64,000 nucleotides of DNA from Spirochaetota bacterium (lineage in GTDB: Bacteria > Spirochaetota > UBA4802 > UBA5550), in the NCBI GenBank assembly GCA_042569985.1, contig JBHPHB010000001.1, positions 1,600-65,599 of the forward strand, written 5' to 3'. The translations under genes were made by a program, and so were the position numbers. Below are positions 7,071 to 57,609 of the stretch, piece by piece. The notes under the pieces are model-generated. The model had not been told where the DNA came from. It was given only the letters and a program-made list of their open reading frames with translations, and did not search any database. Positions within the stretch are counted from its first letter, which is position 1, and each line of letters opens with the position of its first letter.

Positions 7071-9110
7071 ATGAAACAATTCAGGGAAATATGTGGAAAG
7101 ATTTTTGTTCCCTCTTTATTTATGCTTTTATTGCTTATTTCAGCAATATTAATATGCTACTCCATGCATACGGCAGACAGTTCCGGAATTATTTTGGGGG
7201 CATTTATTTTAATTGTCACCGGTCTGATTTCCCCTATCATTTTTAAAAATTCTATGGTAAAAAGAACTTTGGTTCCCCTGCTTTTGCTTTCAACATTGAT
7301 ATTGTCCCTTACGGTTTTAAGCATATTTTCAAAGATGAAGGCTAACCCCCTTAATATTGAGACTTACACGTTATGCGGATTTGTAAAAAGAGTTGTCCAT
7401 GGGAGATATAATAAGGAAATTATCTTGAAGCTGGCTGATAATAACTTACGGAATTGCATGGGGTATAATTATAAAAACAGGATTTATATAGGGGCTGATT
7501 TACCGGGTAATTTAAAATTGAAGCGGGGAGATATAATCGAATTTGATGCTGTCAATCTGAAAAAAATTGATGCCGTTAAAAGCAATTCGCCATTTACTTT
7601 GAATCTAATCAGAAGGGGTATCCATTACACTTTAAAACTTTATAAAGATGATTATAAGGTTTTAAAAAACTCAAATGGGAACATCAAAAGTAGTATAAGA
7701 TTGTGGATTGAAAAAAATACGAGGCTATTATTTTCTGATAAAACCTCCTCACTGCTGCTTGCCCTGTATTTTGGCAATAAAAACTATATCGATAAGGGTA
7801 CCATTATTAATTTTAAGAGGGCCGGTGTGCTTCATGTGCTTGCGGCAAGCGGCTTGCATGTTGGAATTATTGCAATCATACCTTTTTTTCTATTAAGGAT
7901 AATACGGGTTAAAAGAAAAATAATTCTCATAATTACAATTCCCATCCTTTTGTCCTATCTTTATATAACGGATATGCCTGTTTCACTTTTCAGGGCTTGT
8001 ATTATGTTTTCCGTCTACTATATGCAGGAGGTATTTGATTTTGATAGAAATATTTTTAATGCATTATTTTTAACCGCAATAATTATCCTATTAGTTCAGC
8101 CATATGAACTCTATTCAATGGGATTCCAGTTGAGCTTTGGAGCAACCCTGGGAATAATATTATTGTTTAAATTCTATAAAGAAGCCCTTGGCTATTTGCC
8201 GGGATTTATTTCAAATTCAATATCCCTCAGTTTATCTGCACAGATAATTGTTGTTCCCATAATTGTCATTAGGATTGGAGAACTCAATCTTACGGGCCTG
8301 CTCAGTAACCTGGTGGTTGTTCCTGTTACGGTTTTAATTATGATATTGTCAATATTAACAAACTTTATCTCTGTTGCTTCCACCGGGTTTGCAGGAATGT
8401 CGGCTATACTTACTGATTATATTTTTATGGCAGAAGAGGTCTTTGTAAATTGGATCTCCTCGCTTGGTGGCCACTTTTTGGTCAACAGTATAAATGTATT
8501 TCTTTTTGCGGCATATGTACTGGCCCTTGTACCGGTGGTGCTATATAAAAAAAGATTATTCTCAATGTCAATTGTAATGGCAATTGCAATTTGCTGGCTT
8601 TCGCTAAATTTTGAAAAGGGGAAATATGATAGTAGTTTAGTGGTATTCAGACATAAAAACAGAAGGGCAGTTCTTTTTAATGATGACAAACATGCATTTC
8701 TAATTGGGGAAGTACCGTCGTTAAATTCTGCAAAATATATAACATGTTATTTGAAAAAAATATATGTGGATAAACTGGATTGTTTTATTACAAAACCGGA
8801 CTTTGATAATATTCGTTCTTATTCATATATAACAAAGAGATTTATAGTGCCAAGGTGTTTTCTATCATCTGGTTTCGGGTTTTCAAAATATATGAATAGT
8901 TTTTTTTGGATTCTTGAGAGGGATAAAGTAAAATTATCAATTTTTAATTCCAGGGGAAAAGCTGAAAAAGTTAATTTTAGCAATATTGCAGGTTATAATG
9001 AAATACCCGGTGAAGTGATTTTTTCAGTATATAAACACATTATATCGGGAAAAATTGATATTAAAACCGATATTTCATTAAAAATTGTAATAAATAAAAT
9101 GCCTTTTTGA
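7071..9110 (+). CDS. comEC: ComEC/Rec2 family DNA internalisation channel protein (C-terminal metallo-beta-lactamase-like domain apparently degenerate)
   Basis: Multi-TM N-terminus. Competence-domain motif AGVLHVLAASGLHVGII. The C-terminal region aligns by eye to the MBL domain, but DVGQGD corresponds to RHKNRR and THPHADH to TKPDFDN. Confidence 0.7.
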   Translation: MKQFREICGKIFVPSLFMLLLLISAILICYSMHTADSSGIILGAFILIVTGLISPIIFKNSMVKRTLVPLLLLSTLILSLTVLSIFSKMKANPLNIETYTLCGFVKRVVHGRYNKEIILKLADNNLRNCMGYNYKNRIYIGADLPGNLKLKRGDIIEFDAVNLKKIDAVKSNSPFTLNLIRRGIHYTLKLYKDDYKVLKNSNGNIKSSIRLWIEKNTRLLFSDKTSSLLLALYFGNKNYIDKGTIINFKRAGVLHVLAASGLHVGIIAIIPFFLLRIIRVKRKIILIITIPILLSYLYITDMPVSLFRACIMFSVYYMQEVFDFDRNIFNALFLTAIIILLVQPYELYSMGFQLSFGATLGIILLFKFYKEALGYLPGFISNSISLSLSAQIIVVPIIVIRIGELNLTGLLSNLVVVPVTVLIMILSILTNFISVASTGFAGMSAILTDYIFMAEEVFVNWISSLGGHFLVNSINVFLFAAYVLALVPVVLYKKRLFSMSIVMAIAICWLSLNFEKGKYDSSLVVFRHKNRRAVLFNDDKHAFLIGEVPSLNSAKYITCYLKKIYVDKLDCFITKPDFDNIRSYSYITKRFIVPRCFLSSGFGFSKYMNSFFWILERDKVKLSIFNSRGKAEKVNFSNIAGYNEIPGEVIFSVYKHIISGKIDIKTDISLKIVINKMPF

Positions 9111-9199
9111 AAAAATAATTAACCCGGCTTAATTTTGTGTATACCTGAATCCGATAATTAAATCATATTCATAAATAATGGGGAAGATATTATATTTAT

Positions 9200-9448
9200 A
9201 TGAAATTTTATACGGACAGAAGGGCATTTAATCGAAGAATCGCCGATAGAAGAATCTCTGATGACAGGGATTATCATGGATATGACAGAAGGCTCAGGAT
9301 TGGTGATAGGCGAAAACTGGAGAGCAGAAGGTTATTTAACAGGGGATTTTCATATAGGGGTGTAAATAAAATTCACATTTCCCTGGGTTGCAATAAAGTG
9401 ACCGTAATGGCATTAGGGGACATGGCAGATAAGTTTTATTACAAGTAA
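9200..9448 (+). CDS. Hypothetical small arginine-rich protein (DRR/RR repeats)
   Basis: ORF only; DRR/DRRL reiterations. No clear RBS. May be non-coding. Confidence 0.25.
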   Translation: MKFYTDRRAFNRRIADRRISDDRDYHGYDRRLRIGDRRKLESRRLFNRGFSYRGVNKIHISLGCNKVTVMALGDMADKFYYK

Positions 9449-9475
9449 TCTTTTTTAAAAGCGCTTATAAATAAT

Positions 9476-44570: not shown

Positions 44571-45344
44571 ATGAAAGAAAAATATAAGAAAATTGTTTTA
44601 TTATTATCCATCTTTTTTGTTGTAATTTACAGTGAGCTTAAATCTCAGGAGAGCAGAAAAGTTGAAATTACTGCGCAGGGGATTTTGGCAAGAGTTGACC
44701 GGGTAATGGAGTATCCCCGTGGTGAAATTAAGGGTATTATTAAACATATAATGCCCGACGGGAAATCCTTTTCCATATATTTTAAAGGATGCATCACAAA
44801 GGAAGATTTTTTATTTATATTCAGAAGTAAGACGAGGGGGATGCAGCTTAAAGTCCTCTATAATTTAAGCGGTGAAGAAATATGGGTATTTAATATTCTA
44901 TCCATTAAGCTGTATAATAAAAAGGGAATTGATAAATACGATTCGATTTTAGGGACTAACTTTTTCTACATTGATCTTTCAAATGCCGATTTGCAAAGCA
45001 ACTATACAGCTTCAATTGTTGGTTCTGCCATTGTAAAGGGGTTTGACGCTTACAAACTAAAGCTGAAACCAATTTTTAAAGCAGGGCTGTATGGCTCTCT
45101 CACCCTTTATGTAAAAAAAGATAATTATATTCCACTGCAGATCGATTTTCACGATCGGGATAATGCTTTATTTAAATTTATGACAATTGCCAAGGTTAGA
45201 AAGCGCGGGAAAAGGGTAATTCCCATAAGGTACGACATGATGCATCTTAGAAGGGGAACCGTTACCATCCTCAACTTTTTCAGTTTCGATGAAGACGTAA
45301 AATTCGAAAAAGAAATATTTCGATCTGAAAAACTTGGCGGTTAA
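44571..45344 (+). CDS. Secreted LolA-like / outer-membrane lipoprotein-sorting-family protein, hypothetical
   Basis: Signal peptide. ~250 aa size/pattern. Low-confidence fold guess. Confidence 0.35.
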   Translation: MKEKYKKIVLLLSIFFVVIYSELKSQESRKVEITAQGILARVDRVMEYPRGEIKGIIKHIMPDGKSFSIYFKGCITKEDFLFIFRSKTRGMQLKVLYNLSGEEIWVFNILSIKLYNKKGIDKYDSILGTNFFYIDLSNADLQSNYTASIVGSAIVKGFDAYKLKLKPIFKAGLYGSLTLYVKKDNYIPLQIDFHDRDNALFKFMTIAKVRKRGKRVIPIRYDMMHLRRGTVTILNFFSFDEDVKFEKEIFRSEKLGG

Positions 45345-46332: not shown

Positions 46333-46719
46333 TTATTCAATTAAAAAGCTGAAGAAGTTTAATACTTCCGTTTCGGAGTGAAGAATCTTGATAAAGTTCT
46401 GCAGTTTGACAATTTTAAAAATATCTTTAATTTGAGACGGAACATCGAGAAAGGCAATTTCACCTTTATTGGCCCTTATTATTTTTGCTGTTTTTATAAA
46501 TGCGCCAATACCGGAACTGTCAATGTATTCCATTTCTTTCATGTCCACAATGATTTTTAATGCGCCTCCATTGATGAGAGTGTTTATGAAATGTATAATG
46601 TAATTTATATTACTCCCATCAACACCCTTTTTAAGGCATATTCTAAAAATAATATGATTGAAATTCAATGAGTCATCGGCAAGGGGATTGATTTTGATTA
46701 TATCACAGTGGACATCCAT
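46333..46719 (-). CDS. STAS-domain anti-sigma-factor antagonist (SpoIIAA/RsbV-like), paralog 4 of 4
   Basis: DMKEMEYIDSSGIGAFIKTAK. Conserved phosphorylatable Ser context DSSG. Confidence 0.75.
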   Translation of the reverse strand: MDVHCDIIKINPLADDSLNFNHIIFRICLKKGVDGSNINYIIHFINTLINGGALKIIVDMKEMEYIDSSGIGAFIKTAKIIRANKGEIAFLDVPSQIKDIFKIVKLQNFIKILHSETEVLNFFSFLIE

Positions 46720-46762
46720 TTATTAATCCTGTTGAAAATTATAAAATATATTTGGAACATTA

Positions 46763-47137
46763 TCATACATTAAGTTTAAGAAATTTTATCGCCTCTTCCT
46801 CTGATTCAAAGATTTGGATAAACCTTTGAAGGTTTACTGGCCTGAATATATTAAGAATGTTTTCGGGAACCCTGATTAATCCGATATCTCCTTTTTTTGT
46901 CCTTAACAATTTTGCGGAATTTATCAGCATGCCTATGCCCTGGCTGTCGATAAAATCTAAATTATTCATATCTATGATTATTTTATTGAGCCCGCCGTCT
47001 ATTAATGTTTTCAGGATTTTCCAGAGGTTATTTGTTTCATCTCTATCAATAACATCGGCTGCTTTTACTTTTAAGATGACGGAGTCATGTTCGATCTTTT
47101 CCTCATTCCTTGATGTTTGCAATATCGTGAAGTTCAT
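46763..47137 (-). CDS. STAS-domain anti-sigma-factor antagonist, paralog 3 of 4
   Basis: DMNNLDFIDSQGIGMLINSAK. RVPENILNIFRPVNLQRF. Confidence 0.75.
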   Translation of the reverse strand: MNFTILQTSRNEEKIEHDSVILKVKAADVIDRDETNNLWKILKTLIDGGLNKIIIDMNNLDFIDSQGIGMLINSAKLLRTKKGDIGLIRVPENILNIFRPVNLQRFIQIFESEEEAIKFLKLNV

Positions 47138-47179
47138 ATTAATTTATTATAAAATGAGAATATATAATCTCCCTTGTAT

Positions 47180-47560
47180 TTAATAATTATATAAAAATTC
47201 CAATGCTTCATTTTCTTTATCAAATATTTTTATAAAATTTTGAAGGTTAATAATCTTAAGTACATGTTTTATTTCATGGGGTACATTCATTATAACCAGC
47301 GTGCCGGAATTATCATTTAACTGCTTTGCTGTGTTTATTAGAATCCCAATGCCGGAACTGCTAATGTATTCTAAGTTTTCCATGTCTACAAGTATTTTTT
47401 TTGCCCCACCGCTAATTAATATATCCATGAACAATGACAGGTTATGGGAATTATCAATATTAATTTCATCGTACAACAGGGCCTTGAATATTATTTTGCT
47501 ATAATCAAAAATATCACTTTTTACCGTGGCCTCACATATTGTGTCAAAAGCTATTTTCAT
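47180..47560 (-). CDS. STAS-domain anti-sigma-factor antagonist, paralog 2 of 4
   Basis: DMENLEYISSSGIGILINTAK. NVPHEIKHVLKIINLQNF. Confidence 0.75.
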   Translation of the reverse strand: MKIAFDTICEATVKSDIFDYSKIIFKALLYDEINIDNSHNLSLFMDILISGGAKKILVDMENLEYISSSGIGILINTAKQLNDNSGTLVIMNVPHEIKHVLKIINLQNFIKIFDKENEALEFLYNY

Positions 47561-47594
47561 TAAAACCTCGTAATATTAGTATAAGTTATAATGG

Positions 47595-47966
47595 CTAAAA
47601 GTATAACGGTATATCCTCTTCCGATTTCAAAATCTTAACCAATTTCTGGAGATTAACTGTTTTAAAAATATTTTCAATATCTTCGGGAAGGTTAATTATG
47701 GCTGTATTCCCGCCTTCCTGATTCAGGGATTTTGCCGTATTGAATAGTACTGCTATTCCCGAACTGTCAATATATTCAAGGTCCATCATATCATATACAA
47801 TATATTTTATACCCCCTTTTATGGTGGTTGATAAGAAAATCCAGAGGTCCTTTGATGTATCAAAATCTAATACGCCTTTCAATTCGATTTTCATTACTAT
47901 TGTATCAAAATCAATCTCGTGGGTTAACCTGGGAGAGAGTTTTATGATCTTGCATATACTTTCCAT
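47595..47966 (-). CDS. STAS-domain anti-sigma-factor antagonist, paralog 1 of 4
   Basis: DMMDLEYIDSSGIAVLFNTAK. NLPEDIENIFKTVNLQKL. Confidence 0.75.
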   Translation of the reverse strand: MESICKIIKLSPRLTHEIDFDTIVMKIELKGVLDFDTSKDLWIFLSTTIKGGIKYIVYDMMDLEYIDSSGIAVLFNTAKSLNQEGGNTAIINLPEDIENIFKTVNLQKLVKILKSEEDIPLYF

Positions 47967-48076: not shown

Positions 48077-50836
48077 TTAAAAATTAAAATCCACAACGAC
48101 CATTGTAATGTCATCCTCCAATCCTTTTTTATTGTTAATTCCAGACCATTCTTTCACTGTATCTATGGATTTTTCCGTAAATTTTTCACAACTTAGATCG
48201 TGACTATTTAGAATTAAATTTTTAAAATTTTTATTACCGAACATTTCCCCCTTTTCATCCTTCGTTTCAAGTATCCCGTCTGTATACATTACAAAACGGT
48301 CCCCTTCTTCCAGGTCAAATTCATTAGTAGGAAAATTCTCTTCAGCCATCCAGCCAAAGGGCATGCCGTTATTTTCATTAAAAATTATTTCATTGTTCTT
48401 TTTTTTGTATAGAAGTGACGGCCAGTGTCCCGCGTTTGCCTGGTATAATTTTTTTTCTTCCAGGTCTATATATGCATAACATGCGGTGATAAATTGCCCT
48501 GATGTATGATTGAACATTGTCGCATTAATTTTAGACATGAGAACATCGGGCTTATCAGCATCTTCAAGAAAAAATGTGAATGTAACTCTCAACATGGCAC
48601 AAATAATTGCCGCCGGTATGCCGTGCCCGGATACATCGGCAATGAGAATGCCAACCTTTTTGTCGTCAATAACCTGGATGTCATAATAATCACCGCCAAG
48701 TTCAAACATTGGCTCATACTGAACTGATATTGCAAAATTTTTCCCCTGGGGAATATCCTTTAGTATTATACTGTCCTGGATCTCATGGGCTATATGAAGG
48801 TCCCTTTTCAGTGATGATAATTCATCGTGAATCTTAACTGAGTCTTTTAGCGATATTAAGTTGTTAACCCTGGCGATTAGCTCCATTTTGCTAACAGGTT
48901 TTGTAACATAATCATTAGCTCCGGCATCAATACCCGCGGCAATATCAGCGGGTTTGTTTTTCGCTGTGAGCATCAGTATGGGTAATTCATACTGAGAATA
49001 GGTTTTCCTCAATGTTGAACAGAGTTCATAACCTGACATTCTCGGGAGCATTACATCAAGGATGAGCAGGTTGGGCAATGCGTTTTCTTCAAATATTTGT
49101 AAAACCTCTGAGCCAGTTGTTGCCGTTATCACCTCATATCCCTCCAATGTGAGGTGATTCAATATAACCTTTATGTTGATGGGTTCGTCATCCACAACAA
49201 CGATCCTTTTCCCATTGAAGTTTTTAGGAGTATTGGCAACTTCAAAAATGGTTGAAGTATCCCTGTCTATTTTGTCAAGGTAATCTGTATTTATTTCAAG
49301 TGTGTTTTTAATATTTAAAACCAGTTGTTTTTCCTTTGATTCATTCAGGGAAAATGAAAAGCAGCTGCCCCTGCCGGGTGATGATTCAACCCATATTTCC
49401 CCTCCATGGAGCTCTACCAGTTTTTTTGCAATTGTAAGGCCCAGTCCTGTGCCTCCAAACTTTCTGGTTGCTGACCCGTCTACCTGCTCAAAGAGGTTGA
49501 ATACGCTTTTGATCTTTTCGGGGTGTATTCCCATTCCTGTATCTTTAACATTTATTATGATTTTATCATTAACGTGATCCTTTTGGGATGATATTTCAAT
49601 GCTGCCAGTTTCGGTAAATTTAACGGCATTGCTTAAAAGGTTCAGCATTATCTGCTGCAGCCTTATCTCATCTCCAAGAATGAATACTGATTCCGGATTT
49701 ATTTTATTCTTGATTTCGATGTTTTTGTTTTTCAGCAGGGGACTTATGATGGACATGATGTATTGTGTTATTGAATACATATCCACGGTTGACATGTTTA
49801 ATTTTATGTCATAATGCTTTAACTTAGAAAAATCCAGTATATCATTAATCAGTCCCGTTAGCTGTTTGCCGCTTTTTTTGATAAGTGATAAATTAAGTAT
49901 TGTCTCCACGTTAAGGCTTCCCGAAACACCCTCCAGGAGAGATTCGGTGAGCCCTATCATGCCGTATAGGGGAGTCCTGAATTCATGTGAAATGGTGGCA
50001 AGAAATTCATCCTTGAGGTTGTCAATCCTTCTGAGTTCCCTGTTGTTGTCCTGGAGCGCGCCAATTTCAAGTTTTATTACTTCCGCCAGGTGGTTAAATG
50101 TTCTGGCAAGCTTACCAAGTTCATCCTTTGAGCTGACGGGAATCCTGTAATTCAAGTCCCCGCTTCCGATTTCTTCCGCCCCGATTATTAACCTGTCAAT
50201 GGGTTTTGATATGAAACGGCTGAATACAAGGCCAATTATGATTGCAATAAGAATTGCTGAGAAAATTGATATGTATATAATATTCCTCAGTTTATTAATT
50301 GGTGAAAGTAGAATTGACTTGGAAAATATCAGCCTGCCCATGCAGTATGTTTTCCGCTGCAGGATTGCCCCCCGGGATATTATTTCATAGTAGGTATCAT
50401 CTATTTCGGGGACTTTAATTTCTCTAACCATATCGTTTTTAAAATTGCTGTCATATTTATGAGAAAGAATTAACTTCAGGGTGTCCGGGTTACTCTCAAT
50501 TATTTTATTTGTATAACTGGAAATTATTATACCATTGTACTTCTCATTAGGTGATATAAGGGTTGTATCAGCATAAAGCAGGCCCGTTTCTTTAAGAGGT
50601 TTAAGGATCGATAACATCTCTTTTGAGTCAATGCGTGTTGCCGTAATGCTTCCTCCGTTCATTATAAGAAGGTTTAAGGTGGACATTGCAAGAATTTTAC
50701 TGTTGATAATCCCCTGGTTTGTAAGAAGATCAATTTTTTCACTCTCCTGAATTTTGAGGATAAAAAACGAAATGGGCAGAGAGGCAATTAGTATTATTGA
50801 TATTAGCAGTAATATTAGTTTATATTTTATCTTCAT
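48077..50836 (-). CDS. Hybrid sensor histidine kinase - receiver - PP2C (SpoIIE/RsbU-type) phosphatase
   Basis: TM and periplasmic region, second TM, HAMP-like linker. H-box ATISHEFRTPL. HATPase GGTGLGLTIAKKLVELHGG. Receiver KRIVVVDDEP...LDVMLP...LMLTAK. PP2C GGDYYDI...ADVSGHGIPAA...MYTDGILE. Confidence 0.8.
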   Translation of the reverse strand: MKIKYKLILLLISIILIASLPISFFILKIQESEKIDLLTNQGIINSKILAMSTLNLLIMNGGSITATRIDSKEMLSILKPLKETGLLYADTTLISPNEKYNGIIISSYTNKIIESNPDTLKLILSHKYDSNFKNDMVREIKVPEIDDTYYEIISRGAILQRKTYCMGRLIFSKSILLSPINKLRNIIYISIFSAILIAIIIGLVFSRFISKPIDRLIIGAEEIGSGDLNYRIPVSSKDELGKLARTFNHLAEVIKLEIGALQDNNRELRRIDNLKDEFLATISHEFRTPLYGMIGLTESLLEGVSGSLNVETILNLSLIKKSGKQLTGLINDILDFSKLKHYDIKLNMSTVDMYSITQYIMSIISPLLKNKNIEIKNKINPESVFILGDEIRLQQIMLNLLSNAVKFTETGSIEISSQKDHVNDKIIINVKDTGMGIHPEKIKSVFNLFEQVDGSATRKFGGTGLGLTIAKKLVELHGGEIWVESSPGRGSCFSFSLNESKEKQLVLNIKNTLEINTDYLDKIDRDTSTIFEVANTPKNFNGKRIVVVDDEPINIKVILNHLTLEGYEVITATTGSEVLQIFEENALPNLLILDVMLPRMSGYELCSTLRKTYSQYELPILMLTAKNKPADIAAGIDAGANDYVTKPVSKMELIARVNNLISLKDSVKIHDELSSLKRDLHIAHEIQDSIILKDIPQGKNFAISVQYEPMFELGGDYYDIQVIDDKKVGILIADVSGHGIPAAIICAMLRVTFTFFLEDADKPDVLMSKINATMFNHTSGQFITACYAYIDLEEKKLYQANAGHWPSLLYKKKNNEIIFNENNGMPFGWMAEENFPTNEFDLEEGDRFVMYTDGILETKDEKGEMFGNKNFKNLILNSHDLSCEKFTEKSIDTVKEWSGINNKKGLEDDITMVVVDFNF

Positions 50837-51958: not shown

Positions 51959-52434
51959 ATCTCATATCTTCTGAATTATATATTTCATAAAATTTAAGTT
52001 AAATTCATTTTATGTCAAATTCCCCATTGTACACCCATGAAGGGGAATGAAAAATAATCATTTCATCACTTTCGTAACATTACTTTTTGCATTTTAAATC
52101 GGAATTATTATTTGAAGTTTTTCTTAGAGTATACTTAAACACAATGTACTGACAATTATGATAAATTTCAATTGTTTTTTAAATTTGACTAAAAAAATAT
52201 GTATACTCAAGTTGAACCAGATGGGTGATTTAATTTTTATTCGGTATCATTACTTCAAGTGAAAAATCCATCTTTTTCGAAGAGCATTTAAATTCATAAT
52301 TTAAAATAATTGCATAAAATATTTTTTACACAGAAAATTATGTTTTTCAGTTGAAATATTTTATACGAAGGATATAAATGTAAAAGTTATATTTCCAAAA
52401 AATGGGAATATTTCATTTATTAAGGAGTAAATTT

Positions 52435-53400
52435 ATGAAAAAAATTCGTTTCTTTTCCATTATCTCCTGCATTTTGATTATGAGCCCTGTCATTGCCAAT
52501 GCAAAGATGAGAATAGCAATTATCGACCTGAAGCCGGACGGGGTTTCACAGAGAACAGCACGGACGACAACAAACATGATAAGAACTGAACTTATTAATA
52601 TGGGTAGGTTCACAGTTGTTGAAAGGTCACGCATGGATGCAATTCTAAAGGAGCAGGGATTCCAGAAAACCGGTTGTACAGATGCATCATGCGCCGTTGA
52701 AGTGGGTAAACTTATTTCGGCAAGGAAGATGCTTGTCGGTGATATAAGTAAGATGGGCAAGGCCATAATTATTTCTGTGAGGATTGTTGATGTTGAAAAA
52801 GGTGTTTCCGAATATGCTGCTACCCAGAAGGCTATTTCTCTGGATGTCGTTGATGAGGCAGTAAGAAAAATTACAAAGAAGCTTGCATACAGGATCAGTA
52901 AGAGCGGAAAGATTAAAGAAATAAAAGAAGTAGAAGATGAAAAAGACGAGCCCGTAGTTGTTTCAAAAACAGGTTACTATCTCAGGGGCATTGTCCCCGG
53001 GTGGGGGCAAATCTATTCGGGACATACCCTTAAAGGCTCCCTGGTGCTTGGAGGCTTTGTTGTCTCTGGAGGATTGATGGGATGGACAATGTATAATTAT
53101 TTCGATAAAAAGAAAAAATACGACGATGCATGGAACCTGTCAGAGAATGAATTCGACAGCCTTTATGATGATTACAAAACCGCTGAGATAATAAATTTGA
53201 CAATGTTGTCTTTAACTGTTGCAATCTATATTTACAACTGGATCGACCTTATCTTCTTTAACAATGTGGAATACGGCAAAACAATTGCCAATGAGGCACA
53301 GAAGAAAGACAGGTTTTTCTATTCACTCAATATATATGATGTTCAGAATGAGGACAGTATAGAGATGAGGATAGATTTAAATTTCGGTATGCGCTTTTAG
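52435..53400 (+). CDS. CsgG-like periplasmic domain protein with C-terminal TM region
   Basis: ATG at 52435 preferred (aaggag RBS). Signal peptide. CsgG-family-like block MRIAIIDLKP...IRTELINMGRFTVVERSRMDAILKEQ...VGKLISARKMLVGDI. C-terminal TM LVLGGFVVSGGLMGWTMY. Confidence 0.45.
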   Translation: MKKIRFFSIISCILIMSPVIANAKMRIAIIDLKPDGVSQRTARTTTNMIRTELINMGRFTVVERSRMDAILKEQGFQKTGCTDASCAVEVGKLISARKMLVGDISKMGKAIIISVRIVDVEKGVSEYAATQKAISLDVVDEAVRKITKKLAYRISKSGKIKEIKEVEDEKDEPVVVSKTGYYLRGIVPGWGQIYSGHTLKGSLVLGGFVVSGGLMGWTMYNYFDKKKKYDDAWNLSENEFDSLYDDYKTAEIINLTMLSLTVAIYIYNWIDLIFFNNVEYGKTIANEAQKKDRFFYSLNIYDVQNEDSIEMRIDLNFGMRF

Positions 53401-53444
53401 TGGATGAAGATTATTAAATGCATGCAGAAAAAAAGGAGGCAAAT

Positions 53445-54833
53445 ATGAAAAGCAATAATAAATATATAATATTTACAGTAATAATTTTATCGGTTGTTTT
53501 CCTTAGTACATTGGGATGCGGCCTAATAGCAGACAGGAATAATTATTCCGATCCCGGCAGCAGTAATTACTCATTTCAAAATCCACAGGAAATTGAATAT
53601 AATAATGACGGCAATGCAACGAATCCCAATGTGGCAATGGATTCAAACGGTAATGCAATCGCTTCATGGTGCCAGGAAGATATTGACGGCGATGCATATT
53701 TCTATGTCAACAGGTACACGCCTGCAAACGAATGGGAAGGCGTAACGGAAATTTCCTGGATTCACCCGTCATTGAGCCTTTACCCGCCATACATTGCATT
53801 TGATCCAATAGGAAATGCCGTCGTGGTGTGGAACCAGAACGAAAGTCCCACTGGGAATGCTCATGATGTATACTCTGTGAGGTATAATTATAATCTTGAT
53901 GATTGGGAAGGTTTGTTTATGCACGATACTCAAACCAACAATGCATACCCCGCGAAGGCAGAGTTTCTGCCTGACGGTGATATCTTTTTGATCTGGACAC
54001 AGTCAGACGATGCCTGTGCAACAAGTAGTGTCTGGTCCACCACATATAGTTCAACCGGTCAAAACTGGGGTCCTGTATATTTAAATGAAGTTGATAATAC
54101 CAGTTTGTACTCGTCCAGATCTAATATGGATATAAATCCAGCCGGAGACATAGCTGTGGTATGGCGCCAGGGGCTTCCGGACAGGGAAATTTACGGCAGG
54201 ATAAGAGATAGTAATACTACCTGGGGGGCTCCTGTAAAACTTTCGGTGGATTCAAATGTTACTCACTGGCCCCAGGTGGCAATGGACAATAACGGCTATG
54301 CAATTGCCGTATGGATTCAGTCCGATTCTCTTCCAAGTGATGGTTTGTGGTCATCATTATATCATGCCTTGGATGAGGAATGGAAACCCCCTGTTAAAAT
54401 TTCCAATCCATCAGCTATTGTTCCTTCTGGTGACCCGCCCAGGATTGCAATGAATCCGGACGGCATGGCAATAGTGGTATGGCTTGAAGAAGAGGCAACC
54501 TATGACCATGTATGGGCAAATTATTACAATGCGGGGTGGTCAGGCCCGGTTAGGGTTGAGCAGCCTTCAAATTATTATTCTGAAACTCCCGAAGTGGCAA
54601 TTAATAACACCGGTGTTGCTGCCGTTGTATGGTCTAAATGGGATGATACAAGCAGGAATATATGGATGAACTGGTATGTTTCTTCCGTTTTTGTAGGGGC
54701 TTATACTATTGATGATTCTGGGGAGTTTGATGCAGTTAAACCAAAGATTGCAATGGATCCAAGCGGTTTTACTATTACCGTGTGGCAGCAATGGGACGGC
54801 TTTGTAAACAGTACCTGGGCATACAAGGAGTAA
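53445..54833 (+). CDS. Lipoprotein with eight ~45-aa G-x-A-[IV]-[AV]-V-W-x-Q repeats (predicted beta-propeller-like)
   Basis: aaggagg RBS before ATG 53445. Lipobox LSTLGCG. Repeats GNAIASWCQ, GNAVVVWNQ, GDIFLIWTQ, GDIAVVWRQ, GYAIAVWIQ, GMAIVVWLE, GVAAVVWSK, GFTITVWQQ, each followed ~20 aa later by a W-x-x-P-V motif. Confidence 0.55.
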   Translation: MKSNNKYIIFTVIILSVVFLSTLGCGLIADRNNYSDPGSSNYSFQNPQEIEYNNDGNATNPNVAMDSNGNAIASWCQEDIDGDAYFYVNRYTPANEWEGVTEISWIHPSLSLYPPYIAFDPIGNAVVVWNQNESPTGNAHDVYSVRYNYNLDDWEGLFMHDTQTNNAYPAKAEFLPDGDIFLIWTQSDDACATSSVWSTTYSSTGQNWGPVYLNEVDNTSLYSSRSNMDINPAGDIAVVWRQGLPDREIYGRIRDSNTTWGAPVKLSVDSNVTHWPQVAMDNNGYAIAVWIQSDSLPSDGLWSSLYHALDEEWKPPVKISNPSAIVPSGDPPRIAMNPDGMAIVVWLEEEATYDHVWANYYNAGWSGPVRVEQPSNYYSETPEVAINNTGVAAVVWSKWDDTSRNIWMNWYVSSVFVGAYTIDDSGEFDAVKPKIAMDPSGFTITVWQQWDGFVNSTWAYKE

Positions 54834-54897: not shown

Positions 54898-55995
54898 TTA
54901 ATATACCATTCTTAAAATATAATTCTCTTCATCTGCCAGGACGGCTGCGGAATTTTTTGCGATGGTTAATGCAAATATAAAATCGGGGTTCCCCGAACCG
55001 AAGTCCAGTATGCTGGCGGGCAGCCTGGATAAATTTGTGACGAGACAGCCCTTTTCGGGGTCATACACTTCGAGCTCATTAAATCTTCCTGCCTCAATAA
55101 TACCTTCCAGGCTTTCCAGAAAGTCATAATAGCTTTTAGATGTAACTTCGGGCATGAACTTGCGAATTTTCACGGCAATTTCGTTGATATGCATCCCCTC
55201 AATTTCTTCAGTTTTAAATTCGGTCACATGCTTCATGATGCCGTTGCCGAAAAAAACAGGCCCGTATTCGCTGACTTTATTTCTTACATCAATGGGAATG
55301 GTGAGAAAAAAGTCTTCGCCCAGGGTTGCCTTTTCAACTTCAACTGATTTTTTCATCATCATGGCGGTGAGGATGTCATTGGTGGAAACGGTCTCTCCAA
55401 AATCTGCCTTGATTTTACGTATGTTGACATGCACCTCCTCTCTGGGTACATTTATATTCTCAATTAACAGGTTGCTGTTTCCCGGAATTGGCACAGTGTT
55501 ATTGTGATTATACTTAAAATCCTTTAACACTGTACGCTCATGTTTAGGTCTAAAGGTGATCTCTGAGCCCTGCATTTTTGAAGCAAGAGCGGACAGAAAA
55601 AAGAAATAACTATAGCCGTCCCCGGCCAGGTGGCTCAATTTCGGAATTATGGCAGTTCCGTTTTTAAACTGGATAACTGTTAAAAAAGAGAGCCTATTCA
55701 TATTGGCTGGATTTACATTATGATACTTTTTATAAATATCTAAATGCGCTTCATCATTATTAAAATCTTCATGAAGTATTATTTCGTTAAAACTTTCACT
55801 TTCGCTGTATTCATCAAAACTGATGATCCCCCCATCATATTTTCCGAACATGGGCCAGAAGAGGGAGGCCAGTTCTTTTAAGGCACCACGAATTTTTTCC
55901 GTATCCAGTTTTTCCCGGTAAAAAAGAATAAATTCGATGGGATAAATTCCGTTTGCAAAGAGTGTGTCGGCCTGTGAAATGTGTACTTTTTTCAT
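54898..55995 (-). CDS. HxxxDG acyltransferase / condensation-domain-superfamily protein, hypothetical
   Basis: SHLAGDGYSYFFFLSAL contains an HxxxDG motif as in CAT / NRPS condensation / WS-DGAT acyltransferases. Size 365 aa. Confidence 0.4.
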   Translation of the reverse strand: MKKVHISQADTLFANGIYPIEFILFYREKLDTEKIRGALKELASLFWPMFGKYDGGIISFDEYSESESFNEIILHEDFNNDEAHLDIYKKYHNVNPANMNRLSFLTVIQFKNGTAIIPKLSHLAGDGYSYFFFLSALASKMQGSEITFRPKHERTVLKDFKYNHNNTVPIPGNSNLLIENINVPREEVHVNIRKIKADFGETVSTNDILTAMMMKKSVEVEKATLGEDFFLTIPIDVRNKVSEYGPVFFGNGIMKHVTEFKTEEIEGMHINEIAVKIRKFMPEVTSKSYYDFLESLEGIIEAGRFNELEVYDPEKGCLVTNLSRLPASILDFGSGNPDFIFALTIAKNSAAVLADEENYILRMVY

Positions 55996-56163: not shown

Positions 56164-57609
56164 TTATTTTGATACTTCCAGTACCGGTACATCGTTATAC
56201 CTGTAGATTGCAACGGTTTTACCGTCGTATGATGAAACTACAATTTCATCAACACCATCATTATCAAAATCTTCTACAACAATAGCTGCCTGGCCAACAT
56301 CTTCATTGGCATCAAGAACTTTCGTTATAAAGCCGCCCGTTGAATTTTGTTCAAGAACAAAAATCCGTTTGTCCCCGTCACCTGATACAACAATGTCAAT
56401 GTCTCCGTCACCGTCAACATCTCCCCAGTGGAAAACGCCCGGTGCACCATGTTCTCCGCAAATCGCGGATGGCCCCGGGCTTTCTATGTCTTCTGATAGA
56501 ACCCGTTCGTTAATCCAGTGTGTTGTTTTGTCACCGGCGGGGATTTCAAATAGAATTACTGCTTCATGAGCTACACCCACACACTTCGATGAATCAGTAT
56601 GGTTTGTTCCGATGGCATATGTTTTGTTGTCTCCGTTAATGAGATTGGGGACTGCTGAAATCTGAATTGAGGGCCCATAGTCATTATCATTAATTGGATA
56701 TTTTGACCAGAGGGAGGTTAATGCATCTTGAGTTCCTGGATTTTCAAACCATACAAATGAAGCATTGACGTCAGTATCGTTATGATCCCAGACAAAGAAT
56801 TGAGGGCTAATGATATCAAGATCATTGTCGTTATCAACATCAAATAATTCAGTCAGCACACCACCGCCTATACCAATAACTATGGGTGTTTTGACAAAAC
56901 GGTCAGGAGAGTTATCTCCTTTGTATACGAGGACGTTGCTGTAGCCAAAGATTCTGCCGGAATTATCCTGATTTTCCGTAAAGTCATATGCTGTGTCAAA
57001 TCCAGTAACAAGTGCGCCAACAGTAACGATATCTGTAATATTGTCACCGTCAACATCTGACATGCTTAAGCTTTTGTAAAATAATGGGTTACTGTCATCA
57101 ATTGCTTTCATTGAAATATCATGTGCTATCCAGTTTCCTCCATCCTGCTCGTACCAGCTGATCCCCCATTTACCCTGTGATCCGAAAAGGACATCCTGGC
57201 AGAGGAAAAAACCTGATGGTACAATAATATCATTGTCACCGTCATTATCCACGTCATGGACTGCAACTCTATTTCCAATACAGATGTTTTCCTCAGTGCC
57301 GAATACTTTTTCCTTTCTCCAGTTTGAAATATCTTCAATATCAGTTCCCTTATTATAGTATATTATTACTTCACCTATAAATCCCTCATCGAAATCACCA
57401 TAAGTACCAACGACTAAATCCTTATTGCCGTCCTTATCAACATCATTTGAAATAACAAAAGAAGAGCCTGTTACTCCACAATCTATTAGGGTTCTTCCGG
57501 GAAGGCTTCTTTCGGAAGAGCATTTTCTGCTGTTGCCGCATGACGAAAATACTAAAATATTAACAAACATTAGTATTATTGGAAAAATCATTAATCTTGA
57601 AATCTTCAT
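56164..57609 (-). CDS. FG-GAP repeat (integrin-alpha-like beta-propeller) lipoprotein
   Basis: Lipobox VFSSCGNS. Reiterated FG-GAP calcium-binding-like motifs DVDKDGNKDLVV, DVDNDGDNDIIV, DVDGDNITDIV, DVDNDNDLDII, DVDGDGDIDIVV, DFDNDGVDEIVV. Confidence 0.65.
   Translation of the reverse strand: MKISRLMIFPIILMFVNILVFSSCGNSRKCSSERSLPGRTLIDCGVTGSSFVISNDVDKDGNKDLVVGTYGDFDEGFIGEVIIYYNKGTDIEDISNWRKEKVFGTEENICIGNRVAVHDVDNDGDNDIIVPSGFFLCQDVLFGSQGKWGISWYEQDGGNWIAHDISMKAIDDSNPLFYKSLSMSDVDGDNITDIVTVGALVTGFDTAYDFTENQDNSGRIFGYSNVLVYKGDNSPDRFVKTPIVIGIGGGVLTELFDVDNDNDLDIISPQFFVWDHNDTDVNASFVWFENPGTQDALTSLWSKYPINDNDYGPSIQISAVPNLINGDNKTYAIGTNHTDSSKCVGVAHEAVILFEIPAGDKTTHWINERVLSEDIESPGPSAICGEHGAPGVFHWGDVDGDGDIDIVVSGDGDKRIFVLEQNSTGGFITKVLDANEDVGQAAIVVEDFDNDGVDEIVVSSYDGKTVAIYRYNDVPVLEVSK

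Follow-up and report, generated by a model that had tools for sequence, protein, structure and literature searches.

The stretch of DNA analysed here (the window) comprises 64,000 nucleotides (nt) of contig JBHPHB010000001.1 from a Spirochaetota bacterium (assembly GCA_042569985.1), and contains at positions 53445-54833 a gene whose product carries eight sequential copies of a tryptophan-rich unit. The eight-fold repeat in this protein is real, and the protein is very probably an eight-unit beta-propeller lipoprotein of a large and largely unannotated family. It is an eight-bladed relative of the BNR_4-type and PLL-like propellers, and the explanation of the whole that we favour on balance is that of a multivalent propeller, anchored by lipid, that binds without catalysis and possibly in the manner of a lectin. 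A single open reading frame (ORF) covers the region in the ORF list (53418-54833, + strand), and residue numbers refer throughout to the 471 amino acid (aa) frame that starts at position 53418.

The eight-fold repeat

The loose core motif G-x-x-[IVFA]-[AVLT]-[VISL]-W occurs eight times in the protein, at aa 78, 132, 187, 243, 293, 349, 399 and 450, with a spacing of 50-56 residues between units. Over 5000 shuffles of the protein the same motif occurred 0.03 times on average and never more than once. In pairwise local alignment the units scored 50.0 on average, compared with 22.9 ± 0.9 after shuffling (z = 30). A hidden Markov model (HMM) of the unit, 50 positions long and refined on 120 homologues, matched all eight units individually with independent E-values (i-Evalues) from 6e-16 to 2e-5, and found no further copies of the repeat in a six-frame translation of the window.

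These results bear out the eight sequential units claimed in a preliminary description of this DNA, which had proposed repeat detection as a check; the internal periodicity is significant. Some of its details have had to be revised. The units were given as 45-50 aa long, but measure 50-56 aa, with an eighth of 31 aa. The motifs proposed for the beginning and end of each unit hold in their exact form for a minority, G-x-A-[IV]-[AV]-V-W-x-Q in two units of eight and W-x-x-P-V in three, whereas the looser core is present in all eight; and the W..PV ending ascribed to every unit does not extend to the truncated unit 8, which is without the W..PV strand. The repeat is an old one, since no tandem repeat was found at the DNA level and the DNA of six units is only 60-73% identical across a 45-nt core. 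The duplication is thus ancient and the repeat maintained at the protein level.

Predicted fold and ring closure

An AlphaFold2 model built from an alignment of 58 sequences (A1) had a mean predicted local distance difference test score (pLDDT) of 87.8 and a predicted template modelling score (pTM) of 0.85. The strands assigned to the model by DSSP fall into eight groups of four. Four strands are clear in each of blades 1, 2 and 7, and blades 3-6 show an outer strand that is short or interrupted. To blade 8 the C-terminus contributes just three (439-446, 452-459 and 464-470). Ahead of unit 1 the model has a further, short strand at aa 57-58, within a confidently placed block (aa 51-60) with a pLDDT of 87. 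The alignment column of F53 in this block holds Trp in 86% of sequences and that of E60 holds Glu in 67%, and the family consensus opens with the fourth-strand motif W-G-x-A-x-x-I-E and stops right after the third-strand motif I-W-A-N-R. Because this N-terminal fourth-strand motif complements a C-terminal unit that ends after strand 3, a permutation by which velcro closure of propellers is classically recognised, we infer a closed ring of eight blades, in which the N-terminal strand would complete blade 8. Closure of the ring is slightly less secure than the identification of the protein as an eight-unit propeller lipoprotein, and rests on the DSSP string, the pTM and the permutation of the N- and C-termini throughout the family.

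According to this model, one unit of 50-56 aa would correspond to one four-stranded blade with the strands P-x-V-A-M-D, G-x-A-I-V-V-W-x-Q, x-I-W-x-x-x-Y and W-G-x-P-V-x-I, the sequence repeat being shifted by one strand relative to the blades. Blade 8 would then consist of an outer strand from the N-terminal half-unit and three strands from the truncated C-terminal unit.

Probable lipid anchor and tether

The protein begins with a signal peptide, MKSNNKYIIFTVIILSVVFLSTLG, which has a basic n-region and a hydrophobic helix modelled at aa 6-33, and which is followed directly by Cys34. The column of Cys34 holds Cys in 79% of the 58 aligned sequences, with the consensus L-x-x-C. The -3 residue of the lipobox is Thr, making it a non-classical lipobox; spirochaete lipoboxes are relaxed. 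Residues 34-47 have a pLDDT below 50 in the AlphaFold2 model, as a tether would show. Judged by inspection and by conservation of the family Cys, the product is probably a lipoprotein, in agreement with the preliminary description. We suggest that the signal peptide is cut at Cys34 and that a disordered tether of about 15 residues would hold the propeller at the membrane surface.

Structural neighbours

When the model was compared with the PDB using Foldseek, the matches included propellers only. The best were the seven-bladed lectins PLL2, PLL3, PHL, PLL5 and CV39L, with E-values from 2.8e-12 to 1e-10 and a probability of 1.00. Template modelling scores (TM-scores) for these were 0.64-0.70 normalised to the target and 0.51-0.55 normalised to the query, at 11-17% sequence identity and with a root-mean-square deviation (rmsd) on superposition of 5-7 Å. 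This rmsd and the modest query-normalised TM-score are compatible with the superposition of an eight-bladed on a seven-bladed ring, without proving it. Next came the CylK propeller, the rhamnose-glucuronate lyase of family PL42, GH145 BT3686 and many six-bladed sialidases; PL42, GH145 BT3686 and the sialidases had E-values of 1e-9 to 1e-8, and the query-normalised TM-score for sialidases was about 0.4. A search of a viral structure library returned generic propellers from structural proteins of phages and giant viruses and was uninformative. At the sequence level the PDB yielded only spurious matches (E >= 0.18), whether it was queried with the single protein or with the profile of 58 sequences, and no homology to the lectins was detected at E <= 10 in phmmer and profile searches of PDB sequences.

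PHL is built of four-stranded blades termed "W-motifs" and binds fucose between them, at sites in which two Trp take part; in this multivalent lectin the same sugar site is repeated between blades (PMC5584973). Like the PLL, PHL and CV39L lectins of Photorhabdus and Chromobacterium (PDB 5c9o, 5mxh, 6rg2 and 6gxs), the present protein has four-stranded, Trp-rich and highly self-similar blades. The W-motif blade fold is found here with four strands per unit (Foldseek E = 2.8e-12, probability 1.00, target-normalised TM-score 0.69), and three Trp positions per unit are conserved across the family in alignment A1. The lectins have seven blades, however, whereas the query and 97 of 120 homologues have eight units, and they are soluble, secreted proteins whereas the query is a probable lipoprotein.

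Relationship to curated families

The sole Pfam match of the protein is to BNR_4 (PF15892), with E = 0.01 and 15.7 bits against a gathering threshold of 27.3, and it covers about one blade. Two homologues match this family better: P0241 passes BNR_4 with 38.6 bits in one stretch of 200 aa, and P0006 reaches a summed 79.5 bits and also contains the Neuraminidase-like domain PF18413. Eight representative homologues of 459-559 aa matched no Pfam propeller family, save for an occasional BNR_4. The query contains no Asp-box, either in the strict form S-x-D-x-G-x-T-W or in the loose form [ST]-x-[DN]-x-G-x-x-[WFY]; it has no Pfam match even at E <= 1 to the PQQ or PQQ_2 repeat, which marks eight-bladed propellers such as BamB and the quinoprotein dehydrogenases, and none to the FG-GAP repeat of integrin-type propellers. 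The earlier statement that the repeat belongs to none of these three types therefore stands, and a confident match to a well-known propeller family, which would have spoken against a new repeat, was not seen. A Pfam search with eight concatenated consensus units gave summed noise only (Tir_receptor_M, Torus and GerPB) and no propeller family.

Among curated models the closest is NCBIfam NF053835, "PDIAV motif-containing lipoprotein", an equivalog model of 458 positions whose curated entry carries a name only. The query scores 42.9 bits against it (E = 4.3e-11), below the cut-off of 90, and the best-matching stretch pairs aa 324-420 with profile positions 28-122 of 458 (about 95 positions). The model is matched at E <= 1e-3 by 56 of the 58 aligned sequences (best 2e-28), and its cut-off is reached by none of the eight representative homologues. 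The query resembles the NF053835 lipoproteins in its nearly equal length and significant sequence similarity, and has, by inspection, the corresponding lipoprotein signal peptide and lipobox Cys. A literal PDIAV is absent; P-x-[IV]-A-[MFI]-[DN], present in six of the eight units, looks like its counterpart. With the query below the cut-off, we regard its group as a sister rather than a part of NF053835. These sequence comparisons place the family beside the PDIAV lipoproteins as their sister group, with the BNR_4-type (sialidase-like) propellers as remote relatives, and outside the curated models. Neither "PDIAV" nor consensus peptides such as GNAIAVW and IWANRY led to anything relevant in the literature. 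The claim that the repeat matches no named family thus holds in that no Pfam model is reached above its cut-off, but has to be qualified by the related NCBIfam model at E = 4e-11, itself below cut-off; and the repeat is novel in being unnamed, but it is not unique to this gene and defines a very large family in public data.

Some family members bear odd labels. Spurious summed Pfam matches (TruB_C, Tir_receptor_M, DUF4227 and Torus) occur among P0006, P0026, P0088 and P0094 and in the family generally, and some members are misnamed "HigB toxin" or "YheU" in JGI data. These names and matches are annotation artefacts of the Trp/Gly-rich repeat.

Family size, architecture and conservation

A word-indexed search found 265 homologues, all labelled hypothetical, from Geobacteraceae, Pelobacter, Geopsychrobacter, Beta- and Gammaproteobacteria and many metagenomes; apart from the protein's own entry the nearest is 30-33% identical. 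With the single protein as query, no relative was found among GTDB species representatives. A database search with a family profile had been proposed in the preliminary description, and when the 58-member profile was run against 1.84 billion representatives of 50%-identity clusters, tens of thousands were matched: 70,446 at E <= 1e-3, 43,120 at E <= 1e-10 and 14,099 at E <= 1e-30. The largest of these proteins are up to 7,923 aa long, with many matched stretches.

Exactly eight units are present in 97 of 120 homologues, against seven in 10, nine in five and 14-16 in five, which makes eight a fixed feature of the module. Longer homologues carry the partner domains Big_5, PKD, K319L-PKD, Big_9, fn3, TSP3, DUF7151, Glucodextran_B and CarboxypepD_reg, which are typical of surface or extracellular proteins, and IG_AIR9 occurs as a partner as well. 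No catalytic domain was found in 24 homologues scanned against Pfam.

All columns of alignment A1 in which one residue reaches at least 60% recur at identical offsets within the unit in each of the eight blades. These are P(-8), Q(-7), A(-5), D(-3), G(0), N(+1), A(+2), V(+5), W(+6), Q(+8) and D/G(+10/+11), followed in the remainder of the unit by I-W-A-N-R-Y, G-W-G, I-E and A. No blade-specific conserved acidic, basic, polar or aromatic residue was found in the 58 aligned sequences. Enzymatic propellers (sialidases, GH145 and PL42) have one active site formed from non-equivalent blades. The eight-fold symmetric conservation seen here would fit repeated equivalent sites or a pure scaffold, and not one active site. 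The query itself retains all of the structural Gly and nearly all of the structural Trp residues, the third Trp of unit 7 being Val, and is a degenerate, divergent member of the family.

Proposed function

We propose that the protein binds extracellular or envelope ligands non-catalytically, at equivalent sites around the ring, much as the PLL and PHL lectins bind sugars between their blades. The proposal is based on the fold neighbours, on the eight-fold symmetric conservation and on the adhesin-type partner domains. By this analogy non-catalytic binding is reasonably probable; a carbohydrate ligand is plausible, and we would not assume it. More speculatively, and with rather less conviction, the family with the consensus P-Q-V-A-x-D-x-x-G-N-A-I-A-V-W ... 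I-W-A-N-R-Y ... G-W-G might constitute a new class of bacterial surface lectins or adhesins, eight-bladed and octavalent, with eight equivalent inter-blade sites made of conserved Trp, Asp, Asn, Gln and Arg, of which the query would be a degenerate, lipid-anchored member with a subset of the sites.

Several points weigh against a multivalent binding propeller. For every member of the family the function would follow by analogy of fold and domain partners, and the likeness to the lectins is at the level of the fold only, with 11-17% identity, a query-normalised TM-score of about 0.53 and seven blades against eight. The query keeps Asn(+1) in two of its eight units, Asp(-3) in four, Gln(+8) in six and the Arg of N-R-Y in two or three; if these polar residues form the binding sites, few such sites are left in it. 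Closure of the ring is deduced only indirectly. The gene context gives no functional lead either, since none of the four homologue loci (L001, L002/L003, L004 and L005) has a neighbouring gene in common with the window or with another of the four.

Alternative explanations

A linear array of beta-sandwich or beta-meander modules might be imagined in place of a closed ring, or a periodicity due to chance or composition. A beta-sandwich array had been raised in the preliminary description beside the eight-bladed propeller, and the model is known from its summary output (DSSP, pLDDT and pTM). Chance is excluded by the z-score of 30 together with eight independent HMM matches, and the pTM of 0.85 points to one rigid domain, not a string of modules. 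Moreover, the strong structural neighbours are all closed propellers, and the strand permutation between the N- and C-termini is family-wide, as ring closure predicts. We consider either explanation most improbable and a non-propeller array effectively excluded; of the two folds first suggested, the eight-bladed propeller is supported by the pLDDT, the pTM, the eight groups of four strands and the uniformity of the Foldseek matches. If the protein is a propeller it could still be an enzyme of the sialidase-like superfamily, acting as a glycoside hydrolase or as a polysaccharide lyase from a site on one side of the propeller. The weak BNR_4 match (E = 0.01) hints at this, as do the homologues that pass the BNR_4 threshold (P0241, and P0006 with its PF18413 domain) and the Foldseek matches, 7esn and 5muk among them, to the PL42 lyase, GH145 BT3686 and many sialidases. 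However, the query lies under the BNR_4 cut-off (15.7 against 27.3 bits) and has no Asp-box, and in the 58 aligned sequences no Arg, Asp, Glu, His or Tyr from which a single catalytic centre could be built is conserved in a blade-specific manner. The query-normalised TM-score for sialidases is below the lectin values, and no catalytic partner domain occurs among the scanned homologues. The BNR_4-, GH145-, PL42- and sialidase-type families have six or seven blades, whereas the query has eight units. We regard an enzyme as improbable.

The protein could instead be a protein-protein scaffold of the cell envelope, an analogue of BamB or TolB that perhaps acts with the CsgG/LpoB/TolB_N-like protein encoded upstream. 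BamB (YfgL) is an eight-bladed propeller lipoprotein of the BAM complex, which carries out outer-membrane protein assembly, and its gross architecture is the same: a single propeller of eight blades and about 400 aa, held by a short tether on a lipid anchor. The upstream gene, only 44 nt away with no terminator-like site between, also has envelope-type domains (CsgG, LpoB, TolB_N and DUF5683). In contrast, BamB is built from a PQQ-type repeat and the query has no PQQ-like match in Pfam at E <= 1; nor was BamB among the 50 best Foldseek matches. Fusions to PKD, Big and fn3 domains, and multi-propeller giants of up to 7.9 kaa (thousand aa), are unlike a dedicated machine subunit. Members of the family occur in Proteobacteria, a group that generally has a BamB of its own, and the pairing with a CsgG/LpoB-like gene was not seen at the four homologue loci. 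We judge a scaffold role unlikely, and consider both it and an enzyme less likely than multivalent, lectin-like binding.

Gene features and genomic context

We take ATG 53445, rather than the in-frame upstream ATG 53418, as the likely true start, because AGGAGG lies 5 nt upstream of it and because the NCBI entry begins there. That entry, "hypothetical protein ACFL20_00275 [Spirochaetota bacterium]", is 462 aa long and identical to the product of the coding sequence (CDS). The same two observations confirm the CDS coordinates of the preliminary description. Features of the gene are collected in Table 1.

Table 1. Features of the propeller lipoprotein gene and the gene upstream of it (window positions; aa numbers refer to the 471-aa frame; i-E, i-Evalue from the unit HMM).
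Feature	Position	Strand	Basis
Upstream gene: CsgG/LpoB/TolB_N-like periplasmic envelope domain and C-terminal DUF5683 membrane domain	52402..53400	+	Pfam
Shine-Dalgarno AGGAGG	53434..53439	+	Read from the sequence; 5 nt before ATG 53445
Propeller lipoprotein CDS	53445..54833	+	ORF list; 462 aa and stop codon
Signal peptide MKSNNKYIIFTVIILSVVFLSTLG and putative lipid-modified Cys (codon 53517-53519)	53445..53519	+	Basic n-region, hydrophobic helix, family Cys
Predicted flexible tether, aa 35-49	53520..53564	+	Low pLDDT
N-terminal half-unit (YSFQNPQEIEY...), putative equivalent of fourth strand W-G-x-A-x-x-I-E	53565..53621	+	F53/E60 alignment; short strand aa 57-58
Repeat unit 1, aa 69-122	53622..53783	+	i-E 5e-14; strands 67-74, 80-87, 93-101, 105-111
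Repeat unit 2, aa 123-177	53784..53948	+	i-E 4.5e-10; four strands
Repeat unit 3, aa 178-233, N-terminal part most degenerate	53949..54116	+	i-E 3e-6
Repeat unit 4, aa 234-283	54117..54266	+	i-E 1.8e-5
Repeat unit 5, aa 284-339	54267..54434	+	i-E 3e-14
Repeat unit 6, aa 340-389	54435..54584	+	i-E 5.7e-16
Repeat unit 7, aa 390-440	54585..54737	+	i-E 6.9e-10
Repeat unit 8, truncated, aa 441-471 (31 aa)	54738..54830	+	i-E 9.7e-10, model positions 1-28 of 50; three strands only

The CsgG/LpoB-like gene is likely to be co-transcribed with the propeller gene, because the gap between them is short and holds no terminator-like site. Downstream and convergent lies a gene for a 365-aa "Transferase" (PF02458) protein (54898-55995, - strand; E = 5.7e-13) without an NCBIfam match. 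PF02458 comprises the BAHD-type acyltransferases, found mainly in plants and fungi, and is unusual in a bacterial genome. Beyond it is a gene for a 481-aa FG-GAP/VCBS-type lipoprotein (56164-57609, - strand; FG-GAP_3, E = 1.5e-18). This second repeat lipoprotein also has a signal peptide and Cys; its sequence bears no relation to that of the eight-unit repeat. About 8 kb upstream of the propeller gene, a gene at 44571-45344 (+ strand) encodes a LolA-like protein for the sorting of outer-membrane lipoproteins (E = 6e-25), which agrees with a diderm organism that traffics lipoproteins. Four tandem STAS-domain paralogues of 123-128 aa (46333-47966, - strand; E 1e-13 to 4e-15) follow immediately downstream of a gene for a 919-aa HAMP-HisKA-HATPase-REC-SpoIIE/PP2C hybrid protein (48077-50836, - strand), and this cluster of STAS and hybrid kinase/phosphatase genes looks like an expanded partner-switching regulatory module. 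At homologue locus L005, near the gene for homologue P0012 (5001-6338), a 487-aa gene (7989-9452, + strand) with faint Pfam noise of the kind drawn by members of the propeller family (TruB_C and DUF4227) is likely to be a paralogue in the same cluster.

Significance

Beta-propellers and propeller lectins are well known, and nothing found here overturns existing ideas about them. The importance of the finding lies mainly in the size of an unannotated family, rather than in an unexpected mechanism: the family is very abundant, has no Pfam model, no solved structure detectable by sequence and no literature that searches by name and consensus peptide could find, and its only curated neighbour is the name-only NF053835. 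The symmetric conservation, the lipid anchor or adhesin-type partners and a nearest fold that is that of lectins make an octavalent surface binder a concrete hypothesis for this family, and a curated family model would clear many spurious annotations, among them TruB_C, Tir_receptor_M and, in JGI data, "HigB" and similar names.

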